The position numbers and the translations under genes were made by a program. This document shows positions 27,781 through 49,447 of a DNA stretch of 64,000 nucleotides, one piece after another (position 1 is the stretch's first letter; every line of letters begins with the position of its first letter). The DNA comes from Planctomycetota bacterium (GTDB lineage Bacteria; Planctomycetota; UBA1135; UBA2386). The notes beneath the pieces were generated by a model. The model saw only the letters and a program-made list of their open reading frames with translations, did not search any database and was not told the DNA's origin. The stretch spans positions 96,001-160,000 of the forward strand of contig JBKAGP010000001.1 in the NCBI GenBank assembly GCA_046290465.1, given 5' to 3'.

Positions 27781-28959
27781 CTGATCACTTGGCTGTTGGT
27801 CCCGCGGATTCGCTGCCACCGCCAGCGAATGCGGGCCCGGTGTCGTGGCGCATCGCCACGACACCGCATGACCTTCGAGCCACCCCGTTGTCCGCACCAG
27901 GACTGCTCCGCCTTCACGACCCCGCCCCGGCGATTCGCCCGCTGGGGTTCGTTCCGCGCCGCCTGCCGCACCGCGCCGGAGCAGCGCTATCGCTGCCCCG
28001 CCTGCCGTAGAACGTTCTCACGCCAGACGTTCCGTCACGACTACCGCGACCGCAGGCCCGCTACCAACGCCCGCCTGTTCGACCTGCTGACGAGCGGCAT
28101 CGGCCTGCGCCAGGCGGGGCGCCTGCTCGAGCTGTCGTGCTCCGGGGTGCAGCGCAAGATGCGCAAGATCGCCCGCACCTGCGCGGGCCTGCACCGCAAC
28201 CTCTCGCAGCGCCTGCCGTCGGGCGGCGACTACGTGCTCGACGAGGAGGAGACGTACGAAGGCTCGTCGATCCGCACCCTGACGGTGCCGATCCTGATCG
28301 AGCGGAAGTCGTGGTTCCTGGTCGCAGCCGACACGGCGCCGATCCGCCGGCTCGCCCGACGCGGCACGACCCGGCGGGCATGGCAGGACGCCCACGAACA
28401 GCAGCACGGCCGCCGGCCCGACCGCAGCCGCGAGTGCGTCGAAGGCGTGCTGCGCGAGCTCGACCGGCGGTGCACCGGACGGCTCGGGCTACACACCGAC
28501 AAGAAGGCGAGTTACGCGAGGTCGTGCAAGAAGGTGTTCGGCGACCGCGCCACCCACACGACCACGGCCGGCACCGAGGCGCGCACGATCCGCAACCCGC
28601 TGTTCCCGATCAACGCGACGATCGCGATGTCGCGCGACAACTGCGGCCGCCTGCGGCGCAAGTCGTGGCTGGTGTCCAAGGCCGCACGCTGGCTCAAGGC
28701 GCAGCTCGACCTGTTCGCCGTCTACCGCAACTACGTGCGCAAGCGATTCAACCGCGACCATCCGATGCTGGCGTCCGCGGTCGTGCTCGGGTTGCTGCCG
28801 CGCCGGCTGCGGTCGGTCGAGGTGCTGCGCTGGCAGCAGGACTGGGGTCCGCGCAGCATCCATCCGATGAGCCTGAGCGGGACGCGATCGGTTTGAATGC
28901 GGACCAATCTACGCCTCCGCGTGCCACTCGTGCGAGGGCACCAACAGCCAAGTGATCAG
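27781..28959 (+). mobile_element. Insertion sequence (~1.18 kb) with perfect 20-bp terminal inverted repeats
   Basis: ctgatcacttggctgttggt (27781-27800) and accaacagccaagtgatcag (28940-28959) enclose a single transposase-like ORF; no clear TSD. Confidence 0.85.
27868..28896 (+). CDS. IS1/IS1595-like transposase (Zn ribbon, HTH, RNase H-like catalytic domain)
   Basis: CP...C and QRYRCPACRRTFS; HTH GLRQAGRLLELS; VLDEEET, LHTDKKASY, PINAT...R..RLRRKSW. Confidence 0.75.
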   Translation: MTFEPPRCPHQDCSAFTTPPRRFARWGSFRAACRTAPEQRYRCPACRRTFSRQTFRHDYRDRRPATNARLFDLLTSGIGLRQAGRLLELSCSGVQRKMRKIARTCAGLHRNLSQRLPSGGDYVLDEEETYEGSSIRTLTVPILIERKSWFLVAADTAPIRRLARRGTTRRAWQDAHEQQHGRRPDRSRECVEGVLRELDRRCTGRLGLHTDKKASYARSCKKVFGDRATHTTTAGTEARTIRNPLFPINATIAMSRDNCGRLRRKSWLVSKAARWLKAQLDLFAVYRNYVRKRFNRDHPMLASAVVLGLLPRRLRSVEVLRWQQDWGPRSIHPMSLSGTRSV

Positions 28960-46782: not shown

Positions 46783-47907
46783 CTAGTGGGCGCGGAAGGT
46801 CATCTGGGTGGCAGAACGGTACGTCTGCCCCGGCTCGAGCACCGTGTCGGGGAAGTTCGCGTGGTGGATCGCGTCCGGATGGTGCTGGGTCTCGAGGCAG
46901 ATCGCGCTGCGCTGCGGGTAGGTCCGGCCGCCCTTGCCGGTCTGGCCGAACAGGAAGTTGCCGGTGTAGACCTGCAGGCTCGGCTCGGTCGTCTCGATCA
47001 CCATCGAGCGGCCGGTCGGCTTGTGCTGCAGTTCGGCGACGCGGCGCATCGTGCCGGCTTCGCCGTCGAGCACCAGGTTGTGGTCGTAGCCCGCGGCCGG
47101 CGTGTCGACCAGGTGTTCGATCATCAGGCCGAGCGCGGTCGGCTGCTGGAAGTCGAGCGGCGTGCCGAGCACCGGCGCGATCTCGCCGGTCGGGATCAGC
47201 GTCGCGTCGGTGGGGGTGTAGCGCGCGGCGTCGACCTGCAGCGTGTGGTCGAGCACCGTTGCCGAGCCGGCGCCGCCGAGGTTCCAGTAGGCGTGGTTGG
47301 TCAGGTTGACCGGCGTGCGCTTGTCGGTGCGCGCTTCGTAGTCGATGCGCAGCCGGTCGTCGGCGTGCAGCGTGTAGGTCACCGCGATCGACAGCTCACC
47401 GGGGTAGCCCTCTTCGCCGTCGGGGCTCGTGTAGGTGAACCGCAGCGCCGGCGCGCCGTCGGCCGTCCTCTGGCGTTCGGCGTTCCAGGTGACCTTGTCG
47501 AGGCTGCGCTCGGCGCCGCCGTGCAGGTGGTTGGGGCCGTTGTTCTTGGCCAGCACGTAGTCGTAGCCGTCGAGCGAGAACTCGCCGTTCGCGATCCGGT
47601 TGCAGACGCGGCCGGTGGTGCAGCCGAAGTACTGGTTGCGGTCCGACTGGTAGCCGGCCACGTCGTCGAAGCCGAGGATCACGTCGCCCAGGAAGCCGGC
47701 GCGGTCGGGGACCCGCACGGCGACCAGGGTCGCGCCGTGGTCGGTGACATCGACCTCGACGTTGCCGTTGCGCAGCGTCCAGAGCGTCGCGGGGCGACCC
47801 TCCGAGTTGCTGCCGAAGTGACGGGACGTGATGGCGTTCTCGGGGAGTTCGGGCATCGACGAGCAGGCGGCGAGGAGGGCCAACGCCGCGAGGGTGGGAC
47901 GCGTCAT
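46783..47907 (-). CDS. galM: Aldose 1-epimerase (mutarotase), predicted lipoprotein
   Basis: GRVCNRIA, NHLHGG, DGEEGYPG, NLTNHAYWNL, GYDHN, CLETQ; lipobox LAAC. Confidence 0.92.
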   Translation of the reverse strand: MTRPTLAALALLAACSSMPELPENAITSRHFGSNSEGRPATLWTLRNGNVEVDVTDHGATLVAVRVPDRAGFLGDVILGFDDVAGYQSDRNQYFGCTTGRVCNRIANGEFSLDGYDYVLAKNNGPNHLHGGAERSLDKVTWNAERQRTADGAPALRFTYTSPDGEEGYPGELSIAVTYTLHADDRLRIDYEARTDKRTPVNLTNHAYWNLGGAGSATVLDHTLQVDAARYTPTDATLIPTGEIAPVLGTPLDFQQPTALGLMIEHLVDTPAAGYDHNLVLDGEAGTMRRVAELQHKPTGRSMVIETTEPSLQVYTGNFLFGQTGKGGRTYPQRSAICLETQHHPDAIHHANFPDTVLEPGQTYRSATQMTFRAH

Positions 47908-47973: not shown

Positions 47974-48066
47974 AAAAGAAAAGCCCCGCGGCCGTCTCGA
48001 GCCGCGGGGCTTCGTTCGTTCTGGTTCCCGACACCACACCGGGAACCACCCAAGTCTGCAACCATG
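47974..48066 (-). ncRNA. Candidate sRNA 1 (~93 nt): hairpin plus intrinsic terminator
   Basis: Minus strand cttgggtggttcccg-gtgtggtgt-cgggaacca...aagccccgcggc-N8-gccgcggggc-ttttctttt; ECF-like promoter directly upstream; ends approximate. Confidence 0.55.
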
Positions 48067-48072
48067 CTCAGG

Positions 48073-48099
48073 AACGTGGGCACCAGGCCCCACGTTGCA
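48073..48099 (-). promoter_or_regulatory. ECF-sigma-type promoter 1
   Basis: TGCAAC-N17-CGTT. Confidence 0.6.
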
Positions 48100-48182
48100 C
48101 CATGTCTCTACGGCTTCGACGGGGTTGGCGGCTCGTCCTTTCGCATTCCTCGGTGGAACGGCTCCTGCCGACTGCCGGGGAC

Positions 48183-48368
48183 CTGATCACTTGGCTGTTG
48201 GTCCGCTGCGTGCCAAGGCAGCCACACCCCCCAGAGCCGCCGGCGAGGCCATGTTCGGGCCCTGCGGCGTCACCGGAGGGCCAGGCGGGGCGATTCCTCA
48301 CGAAATGCGGACCAGAGTCCCGATCACCCTGCCACGGTCGCCGCGGCGACCAACAACCAAGTGGTCAG
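48183..48368. mobile_element. MITE (186 bp), non-autonomous relative of the IS at 27781
   Basis: Left end ctgatcacttggctgttggt is identical to the IS TIR; right end accaacaaccaagtggtcag matches 18/20; subterminal aatgcggacca lies 45 nt before the right TIR (44 nt in the IS). Confidence 0.85.
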
Positions 48369-48406
48369 CTGCATCTGGTGCCGTGGGCCGTATCTGGGCG
48401 AGCCCG

Positions 48407-48498
48407 AAACGAAAAAGGCCCCGCGGCAGGACCGACTGCCGCGGGGCGAGGGCTCGACCTTGGCTCCCCCTCAGGAGCCACCCAAGGGATCGAGCAAG
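48407..48498 (-). ncRNA. Candidate sRNA 2 (~92 nt)
   Basis: Minus strand cttgggtggctcc-tgaggg-ggagcca...gccccgcggcag-N6-ctgccgcggggc-ctttttcgttt; ends approximate. Confidence 0.55.
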
Positions 48499-48504
48499 GG
48501 TGGT

Positions 48505-48530
48505 AACGCCGGAGCGGCCGCCGTGTTGCA
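48505..48530 (-). promoter_or_regulatory. ECF-sigma-type promoter 2
   Basis: TGCAAC-N16-CGTT. Confidence 0.6.
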
Positions 48531-48551
48531 TGTCGCAGCGGTGTATCGGTC

Positions 48552-48675
48552 AAAAAACAAAGCCCCGCGGCTGTCCGACCGCGGGGCTTCGTGCCCGGTC
48601 GGCGCCTCGTCCCAAAGGCGCCGCGGTTTCCTCTCGGGGGCTCCCCCTCAGGAGCCGCGCATCTGCGATGCACGG
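48552..48675 (-). ncRNA. Candidate sRNA 3 (~124 nt)
   Basis: Minus strand ggctcctgagggggagcc (18-mer identical to sRNA 2), a second hairpin ggcgcct-ttgggacg-aggcgcc, and terminator aagccccgcgg-N8-ccgcggggc-tttgtttttt; ends approximate. Confidence 0.55.
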
Positions 48676-48680
48676 GGAGG

Positions 48681-48707
48681 AACGTCGGGCCGGTTGGCGG
48701 CGTTGCA
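48681..48707 (-). promoter_or_regulatory. ECF-sigma-type promoter 3
   Basis: TGCAAC-N17-CGTT. Confidence 0.6.
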
Positions 48708-48751: not shown

Positions 48752-49447
48752 CTACTTCGCCGGAACGAACAGCCGGACCTGCTCGAGCGCGACCTCGTCG
48801 AGGTGGCCGGTGCGGGCGTCTGCGATCGCGTGCAGGTGGCTCTGTCGGTTGTGGTGGGTCAGCTGGCCGGCGGCGTCCTCGACGTAGAAGCCGACCAGCG
48901 TCAGGTCGTCGGCCGGCCCGTCGTAGCGCCACGGCGACGGGCCGGTCGGGTTGGCGATCGGGCAGGCGCCGGCGATGACGTGCATCCGCAGGTTGCGGGC
49001 CCGGCCGGTCACTCGCACCGGCGTCGGCGCGAACGGGTCGACGCCGCGCTGGCGCAGCGCCTCGCCGATGCGCTGCTCGAGGGTCGCGTAGTCGGCGCAG
49101 TCGGGCAGCGGCAGCTCGGTCCACGCGGCGACCTCGCACGCGACCAGCAGGGTCGCACGCTCGCCGGGGCGGGCATCGCGCATCGCGACGTCGTCGCCGA
49201 CGCGTTCGGCGACCAGCGCGCGACCGTCGGCGATCGTCACCTCGCCGCGTAGCCCGGCGAGCGCGCCGACGCCGACCGCGGTCGGGGTCGCGACGTCGGT
49301 GAGCACCACCCGGCCTTCGTCGTTGCCGTTGCGCATCACGTCGCGCAGGCCGCCGAAGGTGCGCACGGGGCCGGTGGCGGGCGGCGCGGTGCAGCTCGCC
49401 AGCAGCAGCACGGCCAGCAGCGCGACCAGCATCGGAGCACGGTTCAT
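48752..49447 (-). CDS. Lipoprotein with an alpha-acetolactate-decarboxylase-like fold
   Basis: Lipobox LASC; GVGALAGLRGEVTIADG, LVGFY...THH...HLH......GHLD. Confidence 0.65.
   Translation of the reverse strand: MNRAPMLVALLAVLLLASCTAPPATGPVRTFGGLRDVMRNGNDEGRVVLTDVATPTAVGVGALAGLRGEVTIADGRALVAERVGDDVAMRDARPGERATLLVACEVAAWTELPLPDCADYATLEQRIGEALRQRGVDPFAPTPVRVTGRARNLRMHVIAGACPIANPTGPSPWRYDGPADDLTLVGFYVEDAAGQLTHHNRQSHLHAIADARTGHLDEVALEQVRLFVPAK

Follow-up and report, generated by a model that had tools for sequence, protein, structure and literature searches.

A tandem array of putative sibling small RNA genes behind ECF-type promoters in a Planctomycetota genome

The Planctomycetota bacterium of assembly GCA_046290465.1 has a genome of one contig (6.59 Mb, 70% GC, 94% complete), and the window analyzed here is a stretch of 64,000 nt from it (contig JBKAGP010000001.1, forward strand, 96,001-160,000). 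Window coordinates count from 1, and "genome" coordinates are positions in the whole single-contig genome. A gap of 844 bp separates galM from a predicted lipoprotein gene, which is the last gene after a response regulator and a histidine kinase. The gap holds three minus-strand units, each built of a promoter, a hairpin, and a terminator (Table 1). An initial annotation had described these units behind the pattern TGCAAC-N16/17-CGTT, and on recomputation every one of its coordinates is correct; the 18-mer that unit 2 has in common with unit 3 is likewise present, as is the compensatory base pair seen on comparing unit 1 with unit 2. It had missed the miniature inverted-repeat element that interrupts the array.

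Table 1. Features of the gap between the lipoprotein gene and galM, in window coordinates
Feature	Position	Strand	Description
Upstream neighbour	48752..49447	-	Predicted lipoprotein, acetolactate-decarboxylase-like domain
Unit 3 (type A) ECF-type promoter	48681..48707	-	-35 box 48707-48702; 17-nt spacer; -10 box 48684-48681
Unit 3 predicted RNA	48551..48675	-	About 122 nt from inferred start 48675; rearranged type A
Unit 3 hairpin	48656-48639	-	Shared hairpin
Unit 3 terminator	48592-48557	-	Followed by T-tract
Unit 2 (type B) promoter	48505..48530	-	-35 box 48530-48525; 16-nt spacer; -10 box 48508-48505
Unit 2 predicted RNA	48409..48499	-	About 90 nt; basal stem, internal loop, shared hairpin 48479-48462, terminator 48447-48418
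Miniature inverted-repeat element	48183..48368	.	186 bp, between units 2 and 1
Box like -10 element of second ECF-like promoter class	48114..48122	-	Class drives homologous unit in G008 and G012
Unit 1 (type C) promoter	48073..48099	-	-35 box 48099-48094; 17-nt spacer; -10 box 48076-48073
Unit 1 predicted RNA	47974..48067	-	About 93 nt; 5' 20 nt mostly unpaired
Unit 1 hairpin	48047-48023	-	G/U-rich loop
Unit 1 terminator	48013-47980	-	
Downstream neighbour	46783..47907	-	Aldose 1-epimerase (galM)

The three units are designated type A (unit 3), type B (unit 2), and type C (unit 1). They are related as siblings, and the genome total is five rather than three: two dispersed copies, at genome 1421935 and 5551740, each carry a promoter and a terminator. 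The identical 18-mer occurs four times in the genome, i.e., in four of the five units. Unit 3 also has an extra inserted hairpin that is unseen in the type-A units of relatives. The G-rich word TTGGG is found in all three units of the array, as had been noted, but it is not family-wide, being missing from the RNA bodies of both dispersed copies and of relatives' type-A units; the proposal that it serves as a common seed is not supported. The dispersed copy at genome 5551740 lies antisense between two paralogous secreted proteins of 479 and 474 aa (57% identical; genome 5550071-5553271) that match no Pfam family and have near-identical C/A-rich leaders.

The 186-bp element is unrelated to the RNAs. 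It has 21-bp terminal repeats that are 90% complementary, two copies of 85-86% identity plus partial copies occur elsewhere in the genome, and it is missing from the three-unit array of a relative (G011; G000-G013 and similar labels denote the genus genomes compared). A 1.2-kb element at window 27781-28959 shares the same terminal inverted repeats and contains a 374-codon open frame that is transposase-like by eye, with no Pfam match; it probably is the autonomous element from which a small MITE family, with about eight places in the genome, derives. A classification of the RNA units themselves as REP- or MITE-type dispersed repeats was rejected, as they number five copies, not the hundreds expected of dispersed repeats, and the terminal repeats belong to this separate element.

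The promoter was surveyed in 18 units from this genome and its relatives, which are mutually related and thus not independent. Each box is exact in 16 of the 18, the spacer is 16-17 nt in 17, and the mid-spacer columns are only 33-56% conserved. The observation that both boxes are kept while the spacers diverge is therefore borne out, and the near-constant spacing supports an ECF-type promoter. A pyrimidine-purine step at +5/+6 after the -10 box (14/18 units each) suggests starts at 48675, 48499, and 48067. When the 844-bp gap was shuffled 2,000 times with dinucleotides preserved, the promoter pattern, which was chosen post hoc, appeared once in five of the shuffles and twice in none. In three units (window 48062-48057, the genome 5551740 copy, and a variant in G013), the -35 box is also found as its reverse complement, at a distance of exactly 10 nt past the -10 box.

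Three checks are independent of the promoter. First, both extra genome copies, found by the hairpin alone, carry it (2/2). Second, a promoter-free pattern matched 52 metagenome loci, three of which score with the RNA model; the promoter lies within 75 nt of all three and of 0/49 others, and two of the three true loci nearly equal the units of G011 and G001. Third, there are 70 strict intergenic terminators in the genome, 46 of them with at least 110 free nt upstream, and the promoter pattern occurs at five of these 46 free-standing terminators, which are exactly the five units.

This genome does contain real promoters of the AAC-N16/17-CGTT build. A TGAAC variant of the same build, taken as a control, peaks at spacers 16-17 (six and seven matches vs. 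0-3) and precedes its own ECF gene at genome 704464. A second control type, GCATCC/CGAA, precedes fasciclin genes in 14 of 18 loci across the genus. In excerpts of the supplement of PMC7826278, GCAAC -35 boxes are given for ECF21, 30, 51, 249, and 266 and CGTT -10 boxes for ECF37, 213, and 256, among the groups listed. The region around the TGAAC control (genome 704464-708347) encodes the autoregulated ECF sigma factor, an anti-sigma-like gene, and an outer-membrane efflux gene, and TGAAC-type promoters precede about 20 genes.

The unit-type boxes yield a weak mRNA regulon signal. A genome scan for the pattern, as the initial annotation had advised, did find sites at mRNA genes, but the raw count is not over-represented at the unit spacings (seven and eight matches at spacers 16 and 17 vs. 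1-13 at other spacers between 10 and 25). Restriction to upstream DNA leaves a small excess (two and four vs. 0-2 elsewhere), and together these counts argue against a large regulon. The boxes precede orthologues of a DUF2203 gene in 3/3 relatives checked and orthologues of a predicted lipoprotein gene in 2/4. The genome has 98 sigma-domain matches, and among the 94 that were mapped to called genes, none has the exact unit boxes upstream; the expected autoregulated ECF gene was not found in this set. Another unit-type site, at genome 2114534, lies upstream of a cluster that resembles, by eye, a type VI secretion tube/baseplate operon.

Downstream of the promoters, the RNA bodies fold better than 200/200 shuffles each (z = -5.7, -4.2, and -3.5), and the region contains five terminator-like calls vs. 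0.6 in shuffles. The terminators are GC-rich with a T-tract, and some are symmetrical enough to function in both directions. In an alignment of eight type-A sequences, 99.3% of cells are paired, a value that falls to 38-58% when the structure is slid. Four pairs show two-sided change, one in the hairpin and three in the terminator, and the covariation score was reached by 0/500 shuffles, so that the covariation sought for this structure is present in type A. Types A, B, and C have retained the stem sequence, while G010 and type C have loops that differ, and the most conserved part is the stem itself, sequestered by pairing. The type-A linker is conserved yet predicted to be unpaired in most units. 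A basal stem common to all types was rejected; it is supported for type B alone (p = 0.03-0.19; combined p = 0.16 over 17 units), and type A lacks it.

To delimit the family, a covariance model was searched with 23-38 candidates scored per genome. Strong matches occur in 7 of the 14 other genus genomes, and several of the non-matching genomes are incomplete; six of the seven positive genomes belonged to the training set, and G010 is new. The anticipated conservation in relatives is thus seen, within narrow limits. In other genera of the family, only weak matches were obtained (14/76 genomes), and the 15 loci concerned were dismissed as terminators, tRNA flanks, or coding DNA without a promoter-hairpin-terminator layout with the unit boxes. 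Across 151 class genomes, strong matches were confined to members of the genus, and four weak class loci lacked the same layout. A scan of 185,579 species returned five loci, all of them units already seen in the genus, and two viral matches were set aside as chance.

Rfam 15 gave no match above the gathering threshold, in agreement with the proposed novelty: the best score was 26.6 bits against a threshold of 50 (E = 0.52), the best E value was 0.064, and seven further loci produced 0 matches. The open-access literature consulted describes no regulatory sRNA family from Planctomycetota, and the portions of it that deal with planctomycete sRNAs or ECF-driven tandem siblings, including part of PMC9029176, contain nothing on this family. 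The comparisons point to a likely undescribed sRNA family, restricted to one genus and of a known functional kind. Stand-alone hairpin-plus-terminator units also occur in other families of the order, in G123 (L248), where the hairpin is nearly the same, and in G039 (L245). Both lack the unit promoter and an Rfam match, and they are possible distant relatives.

Within the genus, the unit complement differs among genomes, which indicates that the array gains, loses, and remodels units. In G011, types A, B, and C follow the same lipoprotein gene in an unchanged order; G002 has types A and B; G009 has types A and B plus a 3' remnant of C; G013 has type A and a variant; and type A is found in G001, G006, and G010, the last with a single unit. 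A lipoprotein orthologue precedes the array in G001, G002, G009, and G011. It likewise precedes a related single unit in G008 and G012 (G008:C150 and G012:C28), where the gap before galM holds one longer unit that is colinear with unit 1 plus its upstream DNA and lies behind different, second-class ECF-like promoter boxes. This homologue suggests promoter switching between ECF classes, and the box at 48114..48122, without a recognisable -35 partner here, is a possible remnant of the second class. The DUF2203 gene at genome 5814657 is preceded by a unit-type promoter with which second-class boxes overlap.

Such flux, with one to three units, the remnant in G009, and a mobile element inserted at this very place, is what functionless cassettes would also display, whether these were duplicated promoter-terminator pairs, insulators, or relics of small mobile elements, transcribed or not. 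The lack of strong matches in half of the other genus genomes, several of them incomplete, and the narrow range of the family fit this explanation as well. Against it, the units exist in only five copies without terminal repeats, boxes and stem are kept while spacers diverge, the stems change on both sides, and the position by the same gene is retained across species. We therefore judge a functionless origin to be improbable.

Position also bears on whether the units act in cis, as leaders (attenuators) of the downstream gene, or encode tiny mRNAs or type I toxin-antitoxin pairs. Unit 1, the single unit of G010, and those of G008 and G012 stand directly before galM in the same direction, and the several terminators that are symmetrical enough for both directions would suit either leaders or toxin-antitoxin units. 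However, both dispersed copies and the arrays of G002, G009, G011, and G013 precede genes on the opposite strand. Frames that begin at the type-A AUG or on the opposite strand, read by eye, differ from copy to copy and continue into the terminator, and this reading gave no conserved short hydrophobic ORF of the toxin-antitoxin kind, sense or antisense. Taken together, the probability of a cis-acting or coding role appears slight.

An alternative raised at the outset was titration of a protein such as CsrA, in the manner of CsrB or RsmY. Purine-rich apical loops and GGA triplets are indeed present, but there is one apical loop, and the triplets lie mostly in the paired stem and are not repeated in loops. 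No CsrA was found above the Pfam cut-off in any of the 15 genus genomes, with a profile that was positive in 3 of 14 reference genomes, and CsrA titration is accordingly unsupported; barring a divergent CsrA-like protein beyond the reach of the Pfam model, we consider it extremely improbable. Searches of the genome itself for Hfq, ProQ, KhpA/B, and Ro60 found none.

A broader version of this idea holds that the ECF-driven RNAs bind a protein other than CsrA, or act as decoys that mimic a ribosome-binding site, with the conserved stem as the recognition element. The 3' arm of the type-A stem is Shine-Dalgarno-like, and an AUG lies 7-9 nt beyond it; this AUG is kept in relatives' type-A units and in both dispersed copies, but unit 3 itself lacks it, as do types B and C. 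Protein binding would account equally well for a sequestered stem as the most conserved part, and for its retention across types A, B, and C while spacers and loops diverge, including the G010 loop; no conserved base-pairing target was found, as set out below. On the other hand, profiles for CsrA, Hfq, ProQ, KhpA/B, and Ro60 identified no candidate RNA-binding protein, and the types differ most in their unpaired segments, as the seeds of siblings do. We regard this explanation as unlikely, though it deserves more weight than those above.

The reading that we favor is pairing with mRNA, and candidate targets were sought on gene calls from our own gene finder (about 5,000 genes, some with wrong starts, including galM). 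Leaders of mRNAs in this genome are C/A-rich. Positions 48067-48060 of unit 1, kept in G008 and G012, match the complement of a start codon preceded by C/A-rich bases, and among the 22 best predicted partners of the unpaired 5' end, 12 overlap a called start codon; part of this overlap is trivial, since numerous starts will pair with any RNA that contains the short word. The type-A linker is predicted to pair with the starts of many predicted secreted proteins. Complementarity of accessible 6-mers to start regions exceeded that of shuffles in 3 of 19 evaluable units and did not in 16. A bipartite seed across the hairpin was rejected for lack of excess (17 sites vs. 17-23 in controls).

Two individual sites merit description. 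The 14-nt complement of the hairpin arm plus loop occurs five times in the genome, in four of the RNA genes and once at the ribosome-binding site of a fasciclin gene (genome 2846538), the top match of 5,374 start windows. This gene heads an ECF-RskA operon (genome 2845270-2848816) and is divergent from a gene with a B12-binding domain. The G010 orthologue lacks the site, and so do the orthologues in five genomes where type-A/B units are not known and the paralogous fasciclins of G001, G002, G009, and G011; G013 gave no match. In five carrier genomes, the complement has five non-self sites, none at a shared ribosome-binding site. The fasciclin pairing is a genome-specific lead that may be due to chance.

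The second site is the start region of the gene that heads a kinase-ECF operon (genome 6536953); this region is predicted to pair with the type-A linker. It is kept in G000, which is counted among the type-A carriers, and in G001, G002, G009, G010, and G011, and partly in G013; this amounts to 6/7 carriers vs. 0/4 genomes without a known type-A unit (G003, G004, G008, and G012), in a comparison of 13 loci from which two lacking the leader were left out. The site ranks 75th of 5,374 in the cofolding scan, and we read its apparent conservation as confounded by an extended Shine-Dalgarno sequence and by kinship. Among the predicted targets, none survived the conservation test in relatives. The operon itself (genome 6536953-6539951) encodes a membrane or secreted protein that matches no family, a Ser/Thr kinase, an ECF sigma factor, and a small cysteine/histidine-containing protein, and its first gene is found in 13 of the 15 genus genomes.

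We propose that the units are probably sibling sRNA genes that are ECF-driven, independent of chaperones, and repress translation by pairing at mRNA start regions. The first step, in which the two boxes would form an ECF promoter, place the start 6 nt beyond the -10 box, and give rise to real transcripts, is very likely. One stress-type ECF sigma factor would then switch on all five units together, and the predicted transcripts of 86-125 nt would repress translation at mRNA start regions without a known RNA chaperone. The conserved unpaired type-A linker and the 5' end of unit 1 would serve as seeds, pairing across start codons in C/A-rich context, mostly of secreted or envelope proteins; on this basis, the RNAs are proposed to be the repressing arm of the sigma factor's response. 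Types A, B, and C would have arisen by tandem duplication followed by divergence of the unpaired segments, which could provide both shared and separate targets.

A more specific role is conceivable, in which an orphan ECF sigma factor acts mainly through the five RNAs, and these connect sigma regulons at the RNA level. They would, free of known chaperones, block translation of the first genes in the fasciclin-ECF-RskA and kinase-ECF operons, and units would exchange promoters from one ECF class to another, a possibility raised by the homologue in G008/G012. We hold this role to be doubtful.

Several known systems are comparable. FoxI of Fusobacterium nucleatum is an ECF-controlled sRNA that represses envelope-protein mRNAs at the ribosome-binding site, in a bacterium without Hfq or other known sRNA chaperones but with a KhpB homologue (excerpts of PMC9546586). 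The ECF-type promoter and the lack of a known chaperone are common to both systems; repression is experimentally shown for FoxI and predicted here. FoxI, however, is a single sRNA in a host with a KhpB homologue, whereas this genome has five units and no detected KhpA/B. The same excerpts present MicA and RybB of E. coli and VrrA and MicV of Vibrio as a repressor arm of sigma-E, in which several sRNAs share targets (PMC9546586). These sRNAs resemble the present family in that several follow one ECF promoter type, but they depend on Hfq, and here there is no Hfq and no Rfam match. MicA/RybB and VrrA/MicV are not known to be tandem paralogues.

In genetic layout, the closest match to the five-unit family is LhrC1-5 of Listeria monocytogenes, which comprises five copies of 111-114 nt, four at one locus and one separate, each with its own promoter; the RNAs are driven by the two-component system LisRK, induced by envelope stress, and pair independently of Hfq (excerpts of PMC4132741). 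LhrC copies are near-identical and expose C-rich anti-Shine-Dalgarno motifs, unlike the diverged types described here, in which the anti-Shine-Dalgarno-like arm is paired. Sibling sRNAs are defined in excerpts of PMC4211561 as at least two highly related sRNA genes within a single bacterium, and five related predicted units in one genome conform to the gene-relatedness part of that definition. The siblings covered there (csRNA1-5 of Streptococcus, OmrA/B, PrrF1/2, and AbcR1/2) are tandem or dispersed, with copy numbers that vary between species (PMC4211561). The insertion in csRNA5 resembles the inserted hairpin of unit 3. These families differ from ours in their regulators (CiaR for the csRNAs), in their phyla, and in the absence of an Rfam match here. 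OmrA/B, PrrF1/2, and AbcR1/2 are controlled by OmpR, Fur, and others. Judged by the Rfam searches, the present units belong to none of the compared families by sequence. Finally, the Rhodopirellula-1 motif, a multi-copy structured motif of Planctomycetes that was obtained by comparative genomics, is annotated as cis-regulatory in excerpts of the supplement of PMC2864571; the alignment rows compared share neither the hairpin nor the terminator of the units, which have no Rfam match.

The family offers predicted starts, seeds, and candidate targets with which a repressing RNA arm of an ECF response can be tested in Planctomycetota. A genome with 98 sigma-domain matches, in which CsrA, Hfq, ProQ, KhpA/B, and Ro60 were not found, is also a setting in which to ask how such RNAs would act free of chaperones, and the array is a small-scale example of how sRNA genes may arise, disappear, and acquire other promoters in a single genus. 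Its significance is bounded by the narrow range of the family, an uncultured host, and the predicted nature of the RNAs. At genome 6239357(+), 3558551(-), and 4098911(-), further intergenic terminators stand free with 120-320 nt of unoccupied DNA upstream, and these are candidates for additional small RNAs.
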